Shown: one piece after another, positions 9,250 to 60,040 of the stretch | How positions within the stretch are numbered: the stretch's first letter is position 1 | Layout: every line of letters begins with the position of its first letter | IMG/VR virus record: IMGVR_UViG_3300029935_000001 | Location: 201,867-265,866 of that record | Length of the DNA: 64,000 nt | Source: a virus | Taxonomy: Duplodnaviria > Heunggongvirae > Uroviricota > Caudoviricetes | Reading direction: 5' to 3' (one strand) | Made by a program: the position numbers and the translations under genes | Notes under the pieces: model-generated | The model's input: the letters and a program-made list of their open reading frames with translations, nothing else | The model's database searches: none | What the model was told of the DNA's origin: nothing

Positions 9250-9306
9250 TTGACTTAAAACTCCCAAGTAGTTATAATAAGTTATTAAACAAATAAAGAG
9301 GCAAAT
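9250..9306 (+). promoter_or_regulatory. sigma70 promoter TTGACT-17-TATAAT with SD AAAGAGG (the original pnk promoter)
   Basis: -35 at 9250-9255, -10 at 9273-9278. Confidence 0.55.
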
Positions 9307-9339
9307 ATGCAAGCCATTATCACTGTTGGCGTTTCGTAA
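9307..9339 (+). pseudogene. displaced 5' remnant of pnk (MQAIITVGVS-stop)
   Basis: A 10-codon ORF behind a strong SD whose peptide and DNA (..GGCGTTTCG) match the start of the intact pnk gene (MGKAVICVGVSASGKS); it diverges exactly where the endonuclease cassette begins. Confidence 0.6.
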
Positions 9340-9395
9340 GGTAACTATTGCTGTCTCTGCCTAAAAGTGCATAAATAAAGCGTCAGGAGAGAATA

Positions 9396-10388
9396 GTGAT
9401 ACCAACAAGAGCGCAATACTTTTTTACTGAGCGTGGATTTTTTAGAAAAAACGTCCTCAAAGAAGAAAAGTTCAGTCAACGCTATCCAGCTGTTTATGCA
9501 GAAATTAACAAAATTACTTCAACCTCGTTGCCGTGGCGAGAACGAGTGTATCTATATATACATGATGCACAAGAACCCCCACTCTGCCACTGCGGATGCG
9601 GAGAGCGGTGTGCTTTTTCGAACTGCCAAGACTCGAGTCGATTTACATATTTAAAGTTTTATTCAACTAAGTGCAAAGCTCGTGCTTATGGCGGTGTTGG
9701 AAATCCGTTTTTTGGTAAAAATCACTCAGATGAGACAAAAGAAGCAATCAGAGTTAAAAAGCAGGGCAAAACATATTCGCCCGAAGTAAACGCTAAAAAA
9801 GTGCGTCGCGGTGCTCAAAACGGAATGTACCAGCGTTGTAACTATGACGTTTGGCTCGAAAAATACGGCCCAGAAATTGCTTTACAAAAGCAGTTAGCAG
9901 CAAACGCTAAAAAAGTGCGTCGCGGTGCTCAAAACGGAATGTATGGTAAGTCGCCATCAAAAAAAGCTGGCAATTCTGTTAAGTGTTGGTACAAAGGTTA
10001 CTTTTGCCGCAGTTTATCCGAGCTAAGTTTTATAATAAACTACTGCGAGCGATTTAGGTTATTGTTTGAAACTGCCGAAACTACAAAATACAAAGTTGTT
10101 ATAGGTCCTAATAAAACGTACAGACCGGATTTTTTAGTAAACAACAAATTTATTGTTGAGATCAAACCAAAAGGGCTACAGAAGGCCCATGCTGACAAGT
10201 TTAGCATAGCCAAAGCAGAGTTTCTAAAGCAAGGGCTAACGTTTAAAGTCATTGACCCTATTAAAAAACTAAGTTATAATGACATTTTTGCGCTAATGCA
10301 AACGGGTGCCGTAGAAATAATGGCTGCTACGCATAGCAAAACTTATAACAACTTTATGAAAAGGTATCAAAAATGGGCAAAGCGGTAA
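9396..10388 (+). CDS. free-standing homing endonuclease (Zn-finger + NUMOD3 repeats + C-terminal PD-(D/E)xK-like nuclease)
   Basis: GTG start after AGGAGAG; CHCGCG zinc motif; NUMOD3-like GKNHSDETKEAIRVKKQGK; duplicated AKKVRRGAQNGMY module; C-terminal RPDF...VEIKPK motif; inserted between the pnk remnant and the intact pnk. Confidence 0.7.
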   Translation: MIPTRAQYFFTERGFFRKNVLKEEKFSQRYPAVYAEINKITSTSLPWRERVYLYIHDAQEPPLCHCGCGERCAFSNCQDSSRFTYLKFYSTKCKARAYGGVGNPFFGKNHSDETKEAIRVKKQGKTYSPEVNAKKVRRGAQNGMYQRCNYDVWLEKYGPEIALQKQLAANAKKVRRGAQNGMYGKSPSKKAGNSVKCWYKGYFCRSLSELSFIINYCERFRLLFETAETTKYKVVIGPNKTYRPDFLVNNKFIVEIKPKGLQKAHADKFSIAKAEFLKQGLTFKVIDPIKKLSYNDIFALMQTGAVEIMAATHSKTYNNFMKRYQKWAKR

Positions 10389-11281
10389 TCTGTGTCGGCG
10401 TTTCGGCTTCTGGAAAAAGCACCTGGGCGCGCAATTTCATCCACGACCGTACTACGAATGCCGGCGAGCAGTGGGTTGACATCAATCGCGACTGGGAACG
10501 GCGCTGTATTTTGGTCGAAAAGTCGCAAGGTCAGATTGACCGGCTCGTTTGGCGCCACTGGAAGTGGAAGTGGGAGGACGAAGTCACCCAACGTTGTGAA
10601 GCTCGTCTTGCCGAAGCGGCTGCTGCCCAGAAAAGTGTTGTGATCTCGGATACCAACCTGAATCGAGACCGCCGGACGGCTTTGAAGCACAAGCTCGAAG
10701 CACTTGGGTACGATGTTGAATACAAGTTTTTCTCGGTTACGTTCGAGGAAGCGTGCCGGCGCGATGCTGAACGCGAAAACGGTGTTGGTTACTCGGTGAT
10801 CGCTAAGCAGTTTGAGCAGTGGAATGCCGAGTTTCATGCTAAGCACATCCTGCAAGCTGGTTTGCCTGAATGCGTGATCGTTGACATCGACGGCACCATG
10901 GCTCACATGAAGGGGCGCGGCCCGTTTGATTGGGCGCGAGTGGGCGAAGATACAGTCGACCCGGTTGTGGATCGAATGGTCCAAGCCCTTCAAGACCAAG
11001 GATTTAAGATCGTTTTCCTGTCGGGGCGCGATGGCTGCTGCGAAGCTGAAACTCGCGAATGGCTCCGCAACAAGACCAGCGTCGGCGAGTTCGAGCTGTT
11101 TATGCGCACGGCAGGCGATTCGCGACGCGACGACATTGTCAAGCAAGAATTGCTTGCTGAGCATGTCGAAGGGCGTTACAATGTTTTTTGCGTGTTCGAC
11201 GATCGCCCCCAAATGATTCGCAAGTGGCATGCTATGGGTCTCAAGGTAATGGCTGTTAGCAACCCGTACCTCGAGTTTTAA
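10373..11281 (+). CDS. pnk: polynucleotide 5'-kinase/3'-phosphatase (T4 Pnk-like)
   Basis: N-terminal P-loop GVSASGKST; C-terminal HAD phosphatase motif VIVDIDGTM (DxDGT) plus downstream Asp residues; same domain order as T4 PseT. Confidence 0.8.
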   Translation: MGKAVICVGVSASGKSTWARNFIHDRTTNAGEQWVDINRDWERRCILVEKSQGQIDRLVWRHWKWKWEDEVTQRCEARLAEAAAAQKSVVISDTNLNRDRRTALKHKLEALGYDVEYKFFSVTFEEACRRDAERENGVGYSVIAKQFEQWNAEFHAKHILQAGLPECVIVDIDGTMAHMKGRGPFDWARVGEDTVDPVVDRMVQALQDQGFKIVFLSGRDGCCEAETREWLRNKTSVGEFELFMRTAGDSRRDDIVKQELLAEHVEGRYNVFCVFDDRPQMIRKWHAMGLKVMAVSNPYLEF

Positions 11282-13285: not shown

Positions 13286-13341
13286 CCAGAGCAGCCACGT
13301 TGCGTATAATACGTACATAAGATAACGCAACGGAGCAAGCA
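13282..13341 (+). promoter_or_regulatory. conserved promoter-leader cassette
   Basis: aaaaaaGGTTGACC-17-TATAAT-acgtacataagataACGCAACGGAGCAAGCAATG. Confidence 0.7.
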
Positions 13342-19835: not shown

Positions 19836-19878
19836 TTCCGGTATAATAGCTACATAACGTAACGCAACGGAGCAAGCA
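19819..19878 (+). promoter_or_regulatory. conserved promoter-leader cassette
   Basis: TTGACC-17-TATAAT-AGCTACATAACGTAACGCAACGGAGCAAGCAATG; the -35 lies inside the end of the upstream gene. Confidence 0.7.
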
Positions 19879-21066: not shown

Positions 21067-21124
21067 CTGCTAAGCTCTGTCTGCATATAATACGTATATA
21101 AAATAATGCAACGGAGCAGCCGAC
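21063..21124 (+). promoter_or_regulatory. conserved promoter-leader cassette (variant)
   Basis: TTGACT-17-TATAAT-acgtatataaaataATGCAACGGAGCAgccgacATG. Confidence 0.65.
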
Positions 21125-21424: not shown

Positions 21425-21482
21425 CCGCCTGCCTGCTTTCTGGTATAATAGCTACATACAGTAACGCAACGGAGCAAAGATC
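21421..21482 (+). promoter_or_regulatory. conserved promoter-leader cassette
   Basis: TTGACC-17-TATAAT-AGCTACATACAGTAACGCAACGGAGCAaagatcATG. Confidence 0.7.
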
Positions 21483-35124: not shown

Positions 35125-35178
35125 CCGTTGCGTTAATTCCGGTATAATATAAATATACAGATAATCCAGGAGTTTCGC
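35121..35178 (+). promoter_or_regulatory. promoter unit duplicated with the MORN genes
   Basis: cagGTTGACCgttgcgttaattccggTATAAT; the -35 overlaps the ...ETG-stop of the upstream gene. Confidence 0.6.
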
Positions 35179-36482: not shown

Positions 36483-36524
36483 CCGTTGCGTTTAATTCTG
36501 GTATAATAGCATTGGGTATATGCC
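36479..36524 (+). promoter_or_regulatory. promoter TTGACC-17-TATAAT
   Basis: Nearly identical to the unit at 36848. Confidence 0.55.
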
Positions 36525-36851: not shown

Positions 36852-36909
36852 CCGTTGCGTTTAATTCTGGTATAATAACTACATACGGTAATTGAACGGA
36901 CAAAAAGAA
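36848..36909 (+). promoter_or_regulatory. promoter TTGACC-17-TATAAT plus leader variant (actacatacggtaattgAACGGAcaaaaagaaATG)
   Basis: -10 at 36871-36876. Confidence 0.6.
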
Positions 36910-39036: not shown

Positions 39037-41811
39037 ATGACGCAAATACGCTGGATAACAAGTGCCGGGTCGTTAGGGACCATTCCGGAAGGACGATTTT
39101 ACCGACTACCACTCCAGGCGGTTGCTCCCGGTGAAGATGTGAAATTTAAACTGATCTCAGGCAGGCTTCCTGCAGGGATTCAAGTAAAAATAAACGGAAC
39201 ACTTGAGGGCATACCAGAAGCAGTGGCAATAACACAAGGTGTTCCACTTCCGGTTGACCGCAATGTAACTTCAAAATTCACTGTTCGAGCATACGTCACT
39301 GACGCCCATGGCACAGTGATTGGCATTGCTGACCGGACGTTCGAAGTTACCGTCACGGGTCAAGACGCGCCGCGGTTTGTTACCCCAAGCGGTAGTCTCG
39401 GCGGTTTTTTAGATGCCACCGAGGTCCGCATTCCTATTCAAGTAGCTGACGACGACAACGAAGAGTTAACAATCACTGTCGCGTCTGGCCAGCTCCCACC
39501 GGGCCTTACTGTTGTTGGTAATGTTATTCAAGGCATTATTGAGCCCGAACTTACTCTCGAAAACACTGCTATTCCTGGATTTGACAGATCATCATACGAC
39601 CAGTATCCGTTTGACTTTTCTGCTATCGCAGTGGACCGTAATTATCAATTTACCTTAGAAGTTACCGACGGAAAAGAAACCGATCGCCGCCAATACTCAA
39701 TATTTGTAATGGCGCGCAACAACATCCCACTGGATCCGAGCGAACGGTTTGCGTTATTATCAGGGTTGGTATCAAATTCCGACTCCGATTGGACAGTTGA
39801 GCGGCCTCCGTTTATTACAAACGCATTAAACGAGTTAACAGTTCGCCACGACAACTACTTTTTTTTAAAATTTAATACTGTCGATTTCGACGGCGATCAA
39901 GTGGGAGTTAGGGTCGTCGGCGGGGTGGTGCCGCCATTTCTTTATAATTTCAAAGACACAAACACAACGTTCGATAATGGGACTACTACATTTAAAGAGC
40001 GTTTAGAGGCGTATAAGACTGTTACCTTTGATAATAAGACTACAGTGTTTGATAGCGGCCGTACTCAAATGTTTGTTTCTGGGCATATAACTTTCGACAC
40101 AACCACTCCGAATTTAACATCTAACGCAACAACATTTGATTGCAGGTTGAGCAGCGGCGAAACCTCCGCTACGAGGTTTTATAGTTATTTGCCAGTTAAT
40201 GTTGCTACTTCTTTTGTTAACAATTCGTTGTTCGGCCAACTACCAGACCAGGGTGCCACTGAAGAAGAGTATGTGTTTGTAGTCGAAGCCTACAAACTCA
40301 ACAACCCCGCAATTCGAAGCCGCCCATACCAGTTTAAAATAACCGTAGTCGGCGACATCGAAAAAGAGGTTACCTGGTTAACTGCTACAGTAGACTCAGT
40401 TTGGACTGGCCAGCCATCAACGTCGTTTGTTCAAGCAGCCAGTAAGCTGGGTTATCCGCTACAGTATCGGTTAGCGAAGAACACAGCTAGCAAGTTGCCG
40501 CAAGGCTTACAACTGTTGCCAACAGGTGAAATTGCCGGCCGCCCAAGTATTAACCAGCTAATGTTCGACGGTGAAAAAACCACATTTGATTCGGAACTGG
40601 CCACCCGTCGCGAAGTTAAACCAACTACGTTTGACCGAACTTTTGAATTTGTTGTTGAAGCTTTTTACGTCGATCCTGCCGACGCAACTAACACAATTGT
40701 TTCGACATTTAAGCAATTTACCATCCAGGTGCGTGATTCCGCTAAGCGGCCGTGGGAAGGGTTGTATATTCAAGCAATGCCTCCACTGGACGACCGCGCA
40801 ATAGTGCGGGAGTTTTTATCTAGTACCATTTTTGATCCTGAGATGTTGTTTCGGCCAAATGACCCAAACTTTGGCTTAGCTCGAAACATAGTTTATCATC
40901 ACGCGTTTGGTGTCACTGCTGCTGATTTAGAACAATATGTAGATGCCGTGCAACAATCGCATTATTCCAAAGAAGTCACAATCGGTGAACTGAAGAGCGC
41001 ACAAGCCCTGGACGACAACGGTCAAGTTGAATATGAAGTAATTTATGCGTCTATTGTCGACGATTTAGTCACCGCTAGCGGAGAGTCAATTTCTACTCGT
41101 GTTCAGTTACCGCCATTAAAAAATCGTCCGGTTGATGCTAGCGGAGTTCCAGTCTCTGGTGTTTATCCAAACAGTTTGCAAAATATGCAGAAGCGTATAT
41201 TTACTGAAGTTGGGAGAGTAATACCGTCACTCCCAGCTTGGATGCGTTCTAAACAACCCGACGGCCGGGTGTTAGGCTTTACACCTGCGTGGGTTATAGC
41301 TTACACCAAACCCGGAAAATCACGCGAACTGCTGTATCGAATACAAGAAAATTTTATAAATGTTTTTAATAAAATTGACTTTTCGGTTGATCGATTTATT
41401 GTTGACAAAGAACTAACGTATATCTGGGGTGCAACGCGAACCCCTTCGTATGCAGCTTCGCTTGCGGGTGCAGGAGTTACTGTGTTGCCTGGCGCGTGGG
41501 ATACTCCAACATACACTACGTTTGACATTGATGTCAATCGCACATTTGATCCAGTTAACACATACGACCGTGGCACGGTCACAACAGAAACGCTCGCAGA
41601 CCCGCCGTTTTGGATCAGCGGCGCTGTGTCAACTATTATTTCAAATTCGTGTGGCCAGTGGGACTGCGGCGAAGTGTTGGGTCTAAGCGGCGGAACTGGC
41701 ACTACTTTTGATCGAGCCCGGTTGCGGTTTGTTGCTCCTGTGATTTCCTACGGGCAAGGCGACATTCATAATAAATATGTTATGTTCACAAAACGAGGTA
41801 TTTTTAAATGA
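39037..41811 (+). CDS. large structural protein (924 aa) with N-terminal Ig-like (He_PIG-type) repeats and multiple T-T-F-D motifs
   Basis: Repeats ISGRLPAGIQVKINGTLEGIP / ASGQLPPGLTVVGNVIQGIIEP / ASKLPQGLQLLPTGEIAGRP; at least 8 copies of (T)TFD; likely tail-fibre, baseplate or decoration protein. Confidence 0.55.
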   Translation: MTQIRWITSAGSLGTIPEGRFYRLPLQAVAPGEDVKFKLISGRLPAGIQVKINGTLEGIPEAVAITQGVPLPVDRNVTSKFTVRAYVTDAHGTVIGIADRTFEVTVTGQDAPRFVTPSGSLGGFLDATEVRIPIQVADDDNEELTITVASGQLPPGLTVVGNVIQGIIEPELTLENTAIPGFDRSSYDQYPFDFSAIAVDRNYQFTLEVTDGKETDRRQYSIFVMARNNIPLDPSERFALLSGLVSNSDSDWTVERPPFITNALNELTVRHDNYFFLKFNTVDFDGDQVGVRVVGGVVPPFLYNFKDTNTTFDNGTTTFKERLEAYKTVTFDNKTTVFDSGRTQMFVSGHITFDTTTPNLTSNATTFDCRLSSGETSATRFYSYLPVNVATSFVNNSLFGQLPDQGATEEEYVFVVEAYKLNNPAIRSRPYQFKITVVGDIEKEVTWLTATVDSVWTGQPSTSFVQAASKLGYPLQYRLAKNTASKLPQGLQLLPTGEIAGRPSINQLMFDGEKTTFDSELATRREVKPTTFDRTFEFVVEAFYVDPADATNTIVSTFKQFTIQVRDSAKRPWEGLYIQAMPPLDDRAIVREFLSSTIFDPEMLFRPNDPNFGLARNIVYHHAFGVTAADLEQYVDAVQQSHYSKEVTIGELKSAQALDDNGQVEYEVIYASIVDDLVTASGESISTRVQLPPLKNRPVDASGVPVSGVYPNSLQNMQKRIFTEVGRVIPSLPAWMRSKQPDGRVLGFTPAWVIAYTKPGKSRELLYRIQENFINVFNKIDFSVDRFIVDKELTYIWGATRTPSYAASLAGAGVTVLPGAWDTPTYTTFDIDVNRTFDPVNTYDRGTVTTETLADPPFWISGAVSTIISNSCGQWDCGEVLGLSGGTGTTFDRARLRFVAPVISYGQGDIHNKYVMFTKRGIFK

Positions 41812-42116
41812 GCACAATCGATCCAACTACTATTGATGTAAACTATCCTATTCCAGGCCAGGATAATGATTCGCAAGGATTCCGCGATAACTTTTTCAAC
41901 ACCCGCAGAAACTTTGAATTTGCTGCAACCGAACTTGACCAGCTAAACCTAAACTTTTCGAGGCTGGGCCGCCCCGGCCCCAATGGCATACTGACCTTAT
42001 GGCCGTCCACTAGCGCAGTAATTCCAGCCGGCTGGAGTGATACTAATCATAAGTTAGTGGCAAAAGACGCTGCCAACGCCGATGTAGAGTACAAAATTAT
42101 TCGATTTGACGGCTAA
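41808..42116 (+). CDS. hypothetical protein (probably structural partner)
   Basis: ATGA coupling to the large gene. Confidence 0.45.
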   Translation: MSTIDPTTIDVNYPIPGQDNDSQGFRDNFFNTRRNFEFAATELDQLNLNFSRLGRPGPNGILTLWPSTSAVIPAGWSDTNHKLVAKDAANADVEYKIIRFDG

Positions 42117-42130
42117 TTTACCAAAATCTA

Positions 42131-42184
42131 TTGCTTGCAGCACCCGTGTGCTATATACTCAAGTTATAAGGAGATATAGCACAC
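42131..42184 (+). promoter_or_regulatory. sigma70 promoter TTGCTT-17-TATACT with SD AAGGAGA
   Basis: -10 at 42154-42159. Confidence 0.45.
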
Positions 42185-42589
42185 ATGACACAAGTAAATC
42201 TACACGCTTACCAAGATTTTGTTCAAGCAATCACCAGCGAGGACAGCAATGACCCTGAGGCGTTTGTTCGACGCATTCAAGCGCTCGTTGAGCAAGGAGT
42301 AAATCCGGCGCTGCTTAATACTGCAGCCATTGGTCTGCCTAGCGAAGCCGGTGAATTTTCGGACCTGGTGAAAAAAGTTTTGTTCCATCGCAAAGAACTT
42401 ACAGCCGAGGTTCGCAACAAACTCAACCAGGAACTTGGCGACGTGGCTTTCTATTGGATTACAGCATGCCGCGCACTTGGCTTAGACCCGAACCAAGTGA
42501 TTCAAGACAACATTCAAAAATTATCAAATCGATACCCTAACGGGTTTGATGTTTTTCGAGCTGAGAATAAAGACAAGCTAGGCATTTAG
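42185..42589 (+). CDS. mazG: MazG-like nucleoside triphosphate pyrophosphohydrolase
   Basis: All-alpha NTP-PPase motifs EAGEFSDLVKK and ELGDVAFYW. Confidence 0.65.
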   Translation: MTQVNLHAYQDFVQAITSEDSNDPEAFVRRIQALVEQGVNPALLNTAAIGLPSEAGEFSDLVKKVLFHRKELTAEVRNKLNQELGDVAFYWITACRALGLDPNQVIQDNIQKLSNRYPNGFDVFRAENKDKLGI

Positions 42590-42602
42590 TATATGCGCAT
42601 TT

Positions 42603-42646
42603 AATGTCTCCTAGTGGAGCATAAGTATTATGAACTAGGAGACATT
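42603..42646 (+). promoter_or_regulatory. 13-bp perfect hairpin that occludes the SD of the homing endonuclease gene
   Basis: aatgtctcctagt...actaggagacatt; the 3' arm contains AGGAGAC 5 nt before the ATG at 42651. Confidence 0.55.
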
Positions 42647-42650
42647 ATCT

Positions 42651-43559
42651 ATGAGGCTAGACGACCACACCCTCGTTGCAAATTTTATCAAACGGGTGCA
42701 ATTAAGACAGCCGAACTTTTTTGCGTATTATGATTACTCTGAGGCCGAGCTCAACAGAAGCAATGGCAAAATTAAATTAAAATGCCCAGCACATGGGGAA
42801 TTCTGGACAAACAGGGGCGATCATTTAAGTGGGTATGCAGGGTGTTCTGAATGCTCGGCAGAAAAAAGAAAGAAGACGCTTTTAGCAAAATACGGGGTTG
42901 ACAATTTTTTTAAGAGGACGGACTTAGTTGAGCAAGCGATGCTCAAAAAACACGGGGTTAAAAATCCCGGGTTGTTGCCAGATCACGTGGCTAAAATTCA
43001 AGAAACTAGTCAACAAAGATACGGAATACTGTGGGCCAACCAAACTGATGTATCAAAAGCACATCGAAAGAAAACTAATTTAGAAAAATTCGGCCACGAA
43101 TATCCGATGCAAAATACCGCAGTATCAAAAAAAATGGTCGCAACTAAGATAAAAACTGGCGGATTTACAAAGTCAAATTCAAGCAAACAAGCTACATCCT
43201 ATATTAAAAGTTATATTGAGAGTAAACACTACGACTTATCACAGTGCGCTTTTGCTAGTGTTGAGGATGGCCTCTACGAGTGGGGTATTTATGTTAGCGG
43301 CCGGTGGCTGTTGTTTGACTTAGTAGTGTTTGAAAAAGGGCATCGTGGAAATAAAGAAAAGATACTCGAAATACTCGAATTCCACGGGCCTTTCCACTAT
43401 AATGAAATAGATGTTCAGTTGCGCGGCAATGATGCGGCATATCCTTGGAAAACTAATCGAACCACTATTATGGAGAGCTATATGCGAGATAAAGAAAAAG
43501 AAGCCGTTGCGTTATTGTTAACGGATAAGTTTACAATTGTATGGGGCAAAGATTTATGA
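42651..43559 (+). CDS. free-standing homing endonuclease-like protein (repeated KYGV-N DNA-binding modules + C-terminal nuclease-like domain)
   Basis: Four ~22-aa modules (AKYGVDNFFKRTDLVEQAM / KKHGVKNPGLLPDHVAKIQET / QRYGILWANQTDVSKAHRKKT / EKFGHEYPMQNTAVSKKMVAT); inserted between mazG and a duplicated mazG 3' fragment. Confidence 0.55.
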   Translation: MRLDDHTLVANFIKRVQLRQPNFFAYYDYSEAELNRSNGKIKLKCPAHGEFWTNRGDHLSGYAGCSECSAEKRKKTLLAKYGVDNFFKRTDLVEQAMLKKHGVKNPGLLPDHVAKIQETSQQRYGILWANQTDVSKAHRKKTNLEKFGHEYPMQNTAVSKKMVATKIKTGGFTKSNSSKQATSYIKSYIESKHYDLSQCAFASVEDGLYEWGIYVSGRWLLFDLVVFEKGHRGNKEKILEILEFHGPFHYNEIDVQLRGNDAAYPWKTNRTTIMESYMRDKEKEAVALLLTDKFTIVWGKDL

Positions 43560-43681
43560 GACAAGCGCTCGGCCTGGACCCAAATCAAGTGATTCAAGAC
43601 AACGTAACCAAGCTCGAGGCGCGGCATCCTGCTGGTGTGTTTAATGTTAATTTCGAAAACACTCGCAATGAACCAAAATAA
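43556..43681 (+). pseudogene. displaced 3' fragment of mazG (MRQALGLDPNQVIQDNVTKLEARHPAGVFNVNFENTRNEPK)
   Basis: The peptide duplicates the MazG C-terminus (ACRALGLDPNQVIQDNIQKLSNRYPNGFDVF...), but with diverged codons. Confidence 0.6.
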
Positions 43682-43923
43682 TGGAACACCCATTTATTCA
43701 CGGCTTGGGCCATCTTAGTGCAGACGAGATTCAAGCCACGCTTTCGGAGTTGTATAAAAAACTAGCGTTCGCATCTCGCTCTGGAAATAGTATGCTAGCG
43801 AATCAGATTCGAATGGCAATAGAATCATACCAAGTTGCACATACTCGTAAGCTAGAGGAAATGATCCCTAAGCCCAACGATGATGACGACAGCGACCCTT
43901 TTACTCTAATAGATATATCATGA
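43681..43923 (+). CDS. hypothetical protein
   Basis: taATGg coupling. Confidence 0.4.
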   Translation: MEHPFIHGLGHLSADEIQATLSELYKKLAFASRSGNSMLANQIRMAIESYQVAHTRKLEEMIPKPNDDDDSDPFTLIDIS

Positions 43924-44525
43924 ATGTACGAATCCAGCAGTCATTTGGCTTTTTAGCCGGAGTCTTTGATTCATCCGAGGGACTACTTATGAATGAGTAT
44001 TCCTTGACGCTAGATCTTATTACCAACACTGTTGACTCGATTGAACAAAACATTGCGTTCGACCGGATAACTCACTTTATTGAGAATGTGGTGTCGAATG
44101 CGGTCTTTGTGCGCGACACAGACGTTGAGGTTTGTAAAAATTTGCACGCTGCTGGAGTTCGAGTAATCACTCTACCCGAAGAGCCGTACGATCAAATTGT
44201 TGGGCTGGCATTGTATGCCAAGCTAAGTGCAATAATGGAGCAGCGAATGTTTATCACCGACTGCGAAATTTCCAGCAGCGAAGGCCGTCATGTTGTGTAT
44301 ATGCACGCTGCTGAAGAATCTATCGGACCATTCGAGCTGCCAGGCTGGTGGAATGACCCCAGCAGGTCGTACTGCGATAAAAAGTTGTTTGCCTGGGATA
44401 AAAAAATAATCAAACTTAGTAAATCCGACGACTCGTGGCGGAACTTCAATTTAGATTGGGAAGCTGCAACAGAACCCGCCGATTCGAATGTGGTGGTAGT
44501 AAAATTCGACTATGAAAAAGAGTAG
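43920..44525 (+). CDS. hypothetical protein (201 aa)
   Basis: ATGA coupling. Confidence 0.45.
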   Translation: MNVRIQQSFGFLAGVFDSSEGLLMNEYSLTLDLITNTVDSIEQNIAFDRITHFIENVVSNAVFVRDTDVEVCKNLHAAGVRVITLPEEPYDQIVGLALYAKLSAIMEQRMFITDCEISSSEGRHVVYMHAAEESIGPFELPGWWNDPSRSYCDKKLFAWDKKIIKLSKSDDSWRNFNLDWEAATEPADSNVVVVKFDYEKE

Positions 44526-45015
44526 TGTTGGCGAAAATATTTACTCCGAAGACGAGTTAATTGACTCGTTAATGCGCGACCCTGCTGCGCAACTGTCAGG
44601 CGCTACTGCCGACGTTACACTGCCGACAAATTTAGCCGAAGTGTTAGACGATGTGCCGCATTTTGTTCAACCGACTAAGTTACTGGATGTAGCGGCGTTT
44701 GATCAAAAAAATCAACAACAGTGGCTAATGCCAGACGAGTACAAAGAGTTTGATGTTGCCAAATATGTATTAGAGTTGTGTACCACTGACGCCGAGTTGC
44801 AGCGAGTAGGAAATGAATTATTACTTTACCAAGAGAGGGATTTGTTTAACTTGCTGCGGTATTTAAAGTTTTTAGTAGACACAATGCAACAGCACAATAT
44901 TATTTACGGCGTTGGTCGTGGATCGAGTGTTGCGTCGTATGTGTTGTACTTATTAAAAGTACATAGAATTAATTCTATGTACTATGATTTAGACATTGGT
45001 GAGTTTTTACGCTAA
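44512..45015 (+). CDS. hypothetical protein (167 aa)
   Basis: Overlapping start. Confidence 0.45.
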   Translation: MKKSSVGENIYSEDELIDSLMRDPAAQLSGATADVTLPTNLAEVLDDVPHFVQPTKLLDVAAFDQKNQQQWLMPDEYKEFDVAKYVLELCTTDAELQRVGNELLLYQERDLFNLLRYLKFLVDTMQQHNIIYGVGRGSSVASYVLYLLKVHRINSMYYDLDIGEFLR

Positions 45016-59982: not shown

Positions 59983-60040
59983 TCGTTTGAGCTATCTCCA
60001 GTATAATGGCTACATAACGTAACGCAACGGATCAAACCAA
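59979..60040 (+). promoter_or_regulatory. conserved promoter-leader cassette
   Basis: TTGATC-17-TATAAT-gGCTACATAACGTAACGCAACGGAtCAAaCcAAATG. Confidence 0.7.

Follow-up and report, generated by a model that had tools for sequence, protein, structure and literature searches.

Why a phage should carry the end of its mazG gene twice, once on either side of an endonuclease gene, and which of the two ends is the original one, are the questions raised by a locus in a 64,000-nucleotide (nt) stretch of a Caudoviricetes virus (positions 201,867 to 265,866 of IMG/VR record IMGVR_UViG_3300029935_000001). We call this whole stretch the window, and coordinates refer to it unless an L or P locus is named. 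A preliminary description had reported an intact mazG, an endonuclease open reading frame (ORF) at 42651-43559 and a 41-codon orphan copy of the mazG 3' end, and all three were recovered as placed there: mazG at 42185..42589 (134 amino acids (aa); Pfam MazG, E 6e-9), the endonuclease at 42651..43559 (302 aa) and the orphan at 43556..43681, each on the plus strand. Our analysis indicates that a mobile homing-endonuclease cassette has very probably invaded the last third of this jumbo phage mazG. The cassette would comprise a ~45-codon replacement mazG 3' end, a 61-nt spacer containing a hairpin, and the 302-aa endonuclease gene, a free-standing homing endonuclease gene (HEG) that forms a separate cistron between mazG and the orphan.

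Within the window, a tblastn search with MazG found the orphan at 72% identity over 25 aa (E 1e-7). Alignment of the two mazG 3' copies, proposed in the preliminary description as a way to find the junction and hence the cleavage site, recovered the repeat at the DNA level (39 nt, 85% identical, at 42473-42511 and 43565-43603, with an 18-nt identical run at its end), while the Pfam MazG model matched the orphan weakly and under its cut-off (E 0.029). The orphan is an open ORF whose ATG overlaps the endonuclease stop codon (ATGA, 43556-43559) and whose own stop overlaps the start of p80 (TAATG, 43679-43683), a conserved 80-aa gene on the plus strand (43681..43923) that forms the right flank of the insertion. 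The possibility that the upstream mazG is instead the truncated copy did not hold, as both Pfam and the lengths of homologues (134 aa against 129-142 aa) describe a full-length, functional-looking gene.

The choice between the two ends turned on relatives with and without the insert. A blastn search of the locus against 50,697 GenBank phage records gave no match, the phage lineage being absent from that collection, and a MazG peptide scan of IMG/VR confirmed no relative. Eighty distant IMG/VR relatives, found through a downstream 201-aa gene, share the flanking genes (with p80 homologues in 80/80), and these were rejected as empty sites for being too distant and without mazG at this position. 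A protein homology search, however, returned an identical MazG on a 323-kb contig together with a graded series of relatives, which form two classes that diverge only from about residue 87 onward. The type A tail (..FYWITACRALGLDPN.VIQ.NI.KLS.RYPNG-FD..RAENKDKLGI) is found in the MazG of the window and in P0002-P0005, and the type B tail (..WYW.NACRAL..DP..VI..NV.KL..RHP.GKFNV...) in P0006-P0008 and in the orphan of the window. Type A genes are always followed by an endonuclease gene of ~300 aa and an orphan of 41-44 codons (L082, L085, L087, L095, L098 and L099); the close type B genes are all insert-free (L088-L094, L096 and L097), are directly followed by a p80 homologue, and overlap it with their stop codon exactly as the orphan does in the window (TAATG, a 1-nt overlap). 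Because of this constant association of type A with endonuclease and orphan, and of the shared p80 overlap in insert-free type B genes, the comparison identifies the orphan (codons ~97-134) as the native mazG 3' end and the expressed tail as the part that came with the endonuclease. The downstream ORF was thus found to be a real mazG 3' end, as the preliminary description had held, and not the start of an unrelated gene. At 70-71% identity, the window orphan is closer to the nearest insert-free tails than tail A is (55-63%). In the window mazG, the 5' part is the resident gene and the 3' part, from about 42427-42450, is the replacement tail; this left boundary, equivalent to mazG nt ~243-266, is placed by homology with the sister population described below.

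The loci L082-L097 make up this near-clonal sister population, in which p80 is 99.6-100% identical. The insert is present in L082, L085, L087 and L095 and absent from L088-L093, L096 and L097 at the same site, and the empty sites are precise. The 5' part of mazG occurs in two alleles, X and Y, which are 77% identical and are each found with and without the insert, and the cassette (tail A, spacer and endonuclease) is 99.6-100% identical across both backgrounds even though these differ by 23%. The comparison with insert-free relatives that had been suggested for this locus revealed an insert that is present in some genomes and absent from others, with nearly identical cassettes in the two mazG backgrounds, and so supports mobility. 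The orphans of L082, L085 and L095 are 98.5% identical to the Y-type insert-free tail, and that of L087 is 99.3% identical to the X-type tail, whereas any sister orphan is 51-55% identical to tail A. L082 and L085 are recombinants, as their 5' part is X-type and their orphan Y-type. Compared base by base, the switch to cassette sequence on the left falls at mazG nt 243-249 (L095 versus HEG-free L088) and nt 233-266 (L087 versus L096), and on the right the orphan ATG corresponds to the codon for Met92 in the native X allele (TGG ATG AAC GCG...). Tail A always travels with the endonuclease gene, which is the pattern of co-conversion, with boundaries at mazG nt 243-266 and with L082 as a recombinant. 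Taken as sequence evidence, these comparisons show recent mobility of the cassette in the sister population.

The cassette shared by the window and L098 is 64% (endonuclease, nt), 77% (tail A, nt) and 65% (spacer) identical to the sister cassette, and is by these values a diverged lineage of the same element. It keeps the ATGA junction of the sister cassette, and the window orphan differs from those of the sister population by a 6-nt deletion and substitutions (NACR to RQ). A further observation concerns the 18-nt run CAAGTGATTCAAGACAAC (42494-42511 and 43586-43603), which is the same in the replacement tail and the orphan of the window genome; that tail A of the sister cassette differs from it at 6/18 positions suggests that gene conversion has acted over a short patch between the two copies within the window genome. 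Through this repeat the endonuclease could also be deleted, with a hybrid yet intact mazG left behind.

The endonuclease begins with a helix and a zinc ribbon (C45, H48, C65 and C68) assigned to DUF723, a domain seen in precomputed matches for the identical protein. This is followed at residues 67-169 by the Pfam domain DUF7487 (E 6.6e-12), which covers four K-Y/H-G-V-x-N helical repeats (K80-YGVDN, K100-HGVKN, R123-YGILW and K146-FGHEY). These four modules, noted in the preliminary description without a family and with NUMOD in mind, are therefore real, and the family is DUF7487 preceded by the DUF723 ribbon; no NUMOD motif was found in the protein with Pfam at E values up to 0.1. The protein belongs to 'homing endonuclease' families in PHROGs. 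AlphaFold2 gave a confident model (predicted local distance difference test score of 91), and comparison of folds places the C-terminal domain (aa ~175-302) in the Vsr-like restriction-endonuclease (PD-(D/E)XK) fold, and thus the nuclease fold, which had been proposed for checking, could be named. This assignment is made at the level of the fold only, because sequence profiles of the nuclease domain matched neither the Pfam Vsr and DUF559 models nor PDB sequences. Approximately 90 full-length homologues were found at 33-60% identity. In an alignment of 30 sequences the invariant residues were C45, H48, C65, C68, D223, E240, E243 and H249, all of which are present in the window protein, and D223, E240, E243 and H249 are plausible candidates for the catalytic residues. 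A tblastn search of GenBank phage records with the endonuclease gave only weak partial matches in the repeat region, and no Rfam intron matched the locus. As a variation on this architecture, three extra tandem N-terminal zinc-ribbon modules of ~75 residues precede the full endonuclease in L103 (2725-4350) and L136 (823-2451), and also in L123.

Alignment-based scans of IMG/VR and of JGI metagenomes gave 52 loci of this family, some of which are the same contig in both collections. Mapping with hidden Markov models placed mazG next to the endonuclease in 44 of the 52, usually upstream and in eight cases downstream; of the remaining eight loci, contig ends truncate six, and the last two represent a single divergent second copy, on a 166-kb contig, that was retrieved from two collections. 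The orphan is a separate ORF in the group of the window and in L113, L116, L140 and L141, and is fused in frame to the endonuclease, ending in ..NPNDVIAENVxKLExRYPGGxFD..SENRxxGDL, in L122 and in P0025, P0027, P0032, P0034, P0046, P0056 and P0079. It is partial in L100 (SFDPYYSENRQAGDL) and L105 (EGDI) and absent in other relatives, and the last orphan codons that survive (..EGDI/L) often include the Shine-Dalgarno (SD) sequence of the following gene and its overlapping start (for example, GAAGGAGATATTTAATG in L105). The junctions in related cassettes are spread over mazG codons ~92-101. The mazG specificity of this DUF723-DUF7487-nuclease family appears to be new: in the literature searched, we found no description of it, and nothing specific on a mazG-targeting endonuclease or on a phage endonuclease with a partial duplication of its target.

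Translation of the endonuclease is likely to be controlled by the spacer. The hairpin there had been described as a perfect 13-bp stem at 42603-42646 that sequesters the endonuclease SD; the occlusion stands, but the structure is slightly larger, with perfect 14-bp arms (42602-42615 and 42634-42647, plus strand; 42602..42647 overall) around an 18-nt loop. The SD (AGGAG, 42637-42641) lies within the 3' arm, 9 nt ahead of the ATG. The minimum free energy is -24.2 kcal/mol (z -3.6), and 0/200 shuffled sequences folded as well. A late-promoter-like CATAAGTA is located in the loop at 42620-42627; the stem has no U-run after it and was not called as a terminator, and it had no match in Rfam. Using MAFFT and RNAalifold on 12 leaders we obtained no consensus structure, and because these leaders do not align by sequence we folded each one separately, with shuffles and a control set, so that conservation of pairing rests on folding and not on covariation. 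The SD was paired in 13/13 distinct short mazG-endonuclease leaders (P 0.65-1.0), with z-scores of -1.6 to -9.5 (under -2.5 in 11 of the 13), compared to a mean z of -0.9 and a mean SD pairing P of 0.42 in the control, the mazG leaders of the same loci. The stems differ widely, being TGTCTCCTAGT/ACTAGGAGACA in the window, ATCTTCTTGTT/AACAAGGAGAT in L082 and TCTCCCTGTTCA/TGAACAGGGAGA in L101, and TAAATA is found in the loop of 12/12 related leaders, 17-33 nt before the ATG, where the window has TAAGTA. An SD-occluding hairpin is thus, as judged from folding, a conserved property of the cassette. The likeness to the device of T4 drawn in the preliminary description held, as the hairpin is kept with different stems in the 13 leaders and matches the arrangement reported for T-even phages (PMC2988022).

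Hairpins of other kinds were observed in related and neighbouring leaders. Long spacers of 100-127 nt (L104, L106, L109, L112, L127-L129, L135 and L136) contain a GC-rich terminator-like hairpin with a T-run, followed by TATAAATA, and a long-range stem joins sequence upstream of the terminator to the stretch immediately ahead of the endonuclease start; by sequence, these variants amount to a more elaborate version of the cassette control region. The leader of mazG itself (42146-42184) forms an 11-bp perfect hairpin, GTGTGCTATAT/ATATAGCACAC, with its SD (AAGGAG) exposed in the loop, which is also kept in L082 of the sister lineage. Elsewhere in the window an intergenic module, CCGTTGCGTT .. GGTATAATA(G/A)CTACATA .. 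TAACGCAACGGAGCAAGCAATG, recurs at 13286-13341, 19836-19878, 21067-21124, 21425-21482, 35125-35178, 36483-36524, 36852-36891 and 59983-60031. It has a sigma-70-like -10 box between inverted-repeat arms (CGTTGCG / CGCAACG), with the 3' arm abutting the SD, and looks like a genome-wide design with the promoter in the loop and the SD in the stem.

We propose that, in a co-infection, the endonuclease would cut an insert-free mazG near codons ~88-97 (TGG TAC TGG ATS AAC GC...), and that repair from the cassette-bearing genome, with the mazG 5' part as the left arm and the orphan and p80 as the right arm, would transfer tail A together with the endonuclease gene to the recipient. A genome already carrying the cassette would be immune, its site being split and tail A being different there (W89F, N93T and synonymous changes). 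As the cassette supplies a new C-terminus, mazG would stay functional and the insertion would cost the phage little. The orphan probably originated when a cassette once situated immediately 3' of mazG was copied into a phage without homology on that side, its right end being joined at the break. The hairpin would block endonuclease translation on mazG read-through transcripts, and translation would be freed on transcripts starting inside the loop, from a late promoter of the T4 type, or else proceed at a low level. Because junctions vary over codons ~92-101 in the family, the junction is, on this sequence evidence, an approximate guide only to the predicted cleavage site, and not the cleavage site itself as had been suggested.

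Several points weigh against this interpretation. Nuclease activity, cleavage site and homing are predictions from sequence. The presence/absence pattern could in part reflect ordinary recombination in a hypervariable region beside a tail-fibre-like gene. W89F and N93T, near the junction, correlate with the insert in the closest clade, whose sequences are not independent; residues F89/T93 with a short tail, tried as a diagnostic of insert-bearing alleles, held for P0012 and P0018 but failed for the A-like P0013, which is insert-free. The immunity reading of these substitutions is for that reason only suggestive, and P0013 may represent the lineage from which tail A came, or one from which the endonuclease has been lost. 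Finally, because no close insert-free relative of the lineage of the window itself was among the sequences retrieved, recent mobility of the window cassette can only be inferred. This would fit a cassette that is a fixed relic of old homing, now co-diverging with the phage, with an endonuclease that is inactive or has been domesticated (for excluding competing phages or stimulating recombination), as would the degenerate promoter motif in the loop and a divergence from the sister lineage (64-77% nt identity) that is similar to or above that of the flanks (75-80%). We nevertheless consider a relic improbable, as the zinc ligands and D223, E240, E243 and H249, all of them invariant in the family, are intact, the hairpin is perfect, the endonuclease genes of the window and L098 differ by 10 synonymous versus 5 non-synonymous codon changes with no damage to the frame, and polymorphism is demonstrated for the sister cassette. 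A local tandem duplication or gene conversion of mazG unrelated to the endonuclease, or a chance similarity of the 41-codon ORF, might be suspected from the short similarity within the window alone (25 aa, or 39 nt at 85%). This has next to no probability and is already refuted at the sequence level by the sister orphans, which are 98.5-99.3% identical to insert-free mazG 3' ends with the same next-gene overlap; the 51-55% identity of the two copies within one genome is also incompatible with a recent local duplication.

The role of the hairpin as a late switch must be weighed separately. In the window the loop motif CATAAGTA differs from the ATAAATA core at one position, TATAAATA shows no enrichment (2 found versus 1.3 expected), ATAAATA is weakly enriched (12 versus 6.4) and no sigma-70-like promoter was called in the loop. 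Because of the mismatch, the lack of TATAAATA enrichment and the lack of a promoter call, the late-promoter reading is weaker in the window itself than in its relatives' leaders. The same observations, a loop with no promoter called and late-promoter motifs that are not clearly enriched, agree with a hairpin that instead ties endonuclease translation to that of mazG, its 5' arm being melted by ribosomes as they terminate, or that acts in RNA processing or stability. In L121, L101 and L100, moreover, the stem begins 2-8 nt past the mazG stop, within reach of the terminating ribosome. In the window, however, it begins 12 nt past the stop and probably beyond this reach, TAAATA is kept in the loop of 12/12 related leaders at a constant distance from the ATG, and the same arrangement has been verified experimentally for I-TevI, segB and mobE (PMC2988022); as to an RNA element, the absence of a U-run after the stem means that it is not an intrinsic terminator. 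We regard coupling, or a role in RNA processing or stability, as unlikely.

The orphan may be a working part of the element and not a passive scar, an idea that we put forward tentatively and consider rather doubtful. It would act as the right homology arm, allowing homing into mazG whatever lies downstream, which would be useful because the position of mazG varies from phage to phage; it would also form a translational bridge to p80, and might encode a 41-aa peptide with a role of its own. As read from the sequence, p80 is without an obvious SD of its own, which makes it probable that its translation is coupled to that of the ORF with its end at 43681. Two cassette lineages with endonucleases only 64% identical (nt) both keep the ATGA and TAATG overlaps, purine-rich SD-like tracts occur just before the orphan ATG, and relatives with most of the orphan deleted retain its last codons (..EGDI/L), where the SD of the following gene and its overlapping start lie. 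When the window is compared with L098, the orphan has 5 synonymous and 2 non-synonymous codon differences, the latter both in the last three codons (0 in the first 38). These numbers, too small to be decisive, hint that the orphan is kept for translation into p80, or is refreshed by recombination with native alleles.

Other features of the window were noted around the cassette and at a distance from it. The gene directly upstream of mazG (41808-42116) is hypervariable in length: its product has 102 aa in the window, whereas close relatives have 97-449 aa and distant relatives 247-889 aa (loci L001-L098). Only its first ~46 residues are conserved, and it is preceded by a 924-aa tail-fibre-like protein; because of this hypervariability, the cassette sits at the edge of a region of frequent exchange. 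A 167-aa ORF (44512-45015), at a conserved position in all relatives, has as its only match a fragment of the NTPase domain of bacterial DNA polymerase III alpha (Pfam PF07733, E 3.5e-7). At 9260-11281 lies a mirror-image cassette in which the 5' end of the target gene is duplicated; it is probably the first cassette of the preliminary description, which counted the one at mazG as the second. An orphaned pnk start (9307-9339; ATG CAA GCC ATT ATC ACT GTT GGC GTT TCG TAA = MQAIITVGVS*), which has a promoter (TTGACT..TATAAT) and an SD of its own, precedes a 330-aa NUMOD3 and TnsA-like endonuclease ORF (9396-10388), after which comes the intact polynucleotide kinase gene (10373-11281; MGKAVICVGVSASGKST), and the pnk repeat (9311-9336 / 10380-10405) is 77% identical. 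The 302-aa ORF at 10373-11281 was considered as a second copy of the endonuclease of the mazG cassette and rejected, as it is this polynucleotide kinase. Inside the NUMOD3/TnsA-like gene, a 45-nt direct repeat (9785-9829 / 9899-9943; 98% identical, 114 nt apart) probably represents duplicated DNA-binding modules.

If the proposed mechanism is correct, the mazG cassette is a clear case, found in nature, of a phage homing endonuclease whose insertion is made harmless by a replacement gene end, and not by an intron or intein. A widespread and uncharacterised phage family of DUF723, DUF7487 and an unannotated Vsr-like nuclease domain also gains a likely role, with mazG as its likely target. As matched insert-bearing and insert-free alleles come from the same populations, direct tests can be made of the recognition site, of the immunity substitutions and of control by the hairpin. 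For annotation, the cassette explains the small 'hypothetical' ORFs after such endonucleases, and the endonucleases with a MazG-like C-terminal extension.

Among known systems, the intronless homing of T-even phages (SegF/gene 56, SegG/gene 32 and MobE/nrdB; PMC2988022) shares with the mazG cassette a free-standing gene beside its presumed target, presence/absence polymorphism and co-conversion of flanks. Their ribosome-binding-site hairpins share the sequestered SD and a late-promoter-like motif ahead of the 3' arm; in I-TevI, segB and Aeh1 mobE the ribosome-binding site is sequestered on read-through transcripts and freed by a late promoter (PMC2988022). The T-even examples, however, lie between genes, with no duplicated target-gene end described, and their nucleases are GIY-YIG or HNH enzymes (PMC2988022), and late transcription and cleavage are in our case predicted. 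The Vsr-like endonucleases of marine phage 'fractured genes' are accompanied by TATAAATA-containing hairpins, and such EDxHD elements of the I-Bth0305I type share both fold and hairpin with the mazG cassette (PMC2677866). They split the host gene in two, often with split inteins and with no duplication (PMC2677866), whereas the mazG cassette duplicates the gene end, and the window endonuclease differs from that family in having no sequence-level match to Vsr, DUF559 or PDB entries and in its DUF723 and DUF7487 DNA-binding part. DUF723 is the zinc-finger DNA-binding module of T5orf172 homing endonucleases (PMC10448857). The T5orf172 endonucleases of ICP1-like phages, with CapR/DUF723, share this zinc-ribbon module and a siting at boundaries of genetic exchange (PMC10448857), a boundary marked at the mazG locus by the 5' alleles X and Y and the hypervariable upstream gene. 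The tandem zinc modules of L103 and L136 likewise echo the repeated zinc-finger domains of those enzymes, and the catalytic domains differ, being Vsr-like PD-(D/E)XK in the mazG family and T5orf172/GIY-YIG-like in the ICP1 type (PMC10448857).

The fungal mitochondrial mORFs (Allomyces macrogynus atp6; Glomus atp6, atp9, cox2 and nad3; PMC3630166) have the same order of parts as the mazG cassette, that is, a native core, an in-phase foreign C-terminus, an endonuclease ORF and a native C* remnant. In both systems the native remnant is closer to insert-free relatives than the inserted copy is, at 98.5-99.3% versus 51-55% in the sister population and 91-98% versus 64-81% in Glomus (PMC3630166). 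The host here is a phage, and the enzyme is Vsr-like PD-(D/E)XK with DUF723/DUF7487, in contrast to the LAGLIDADG or GIY-YIG enzymes of mORFs. The phage cassette also has a stop codon and an SD-sequestering hairpin, making the endonuclease a separate, translationally controlled cistron, and its orphan remains an open ORF bridging to the next gene. In literature searches aimed at phage precedents we found no phage report of this C-terminus-replacement design, and in phages it appears to be new. Every element of the design is precedented, in intronless homing, in Vsr-like phage endonucleases with hairpins and in the C-terminus-replacing mORFs of fungi.

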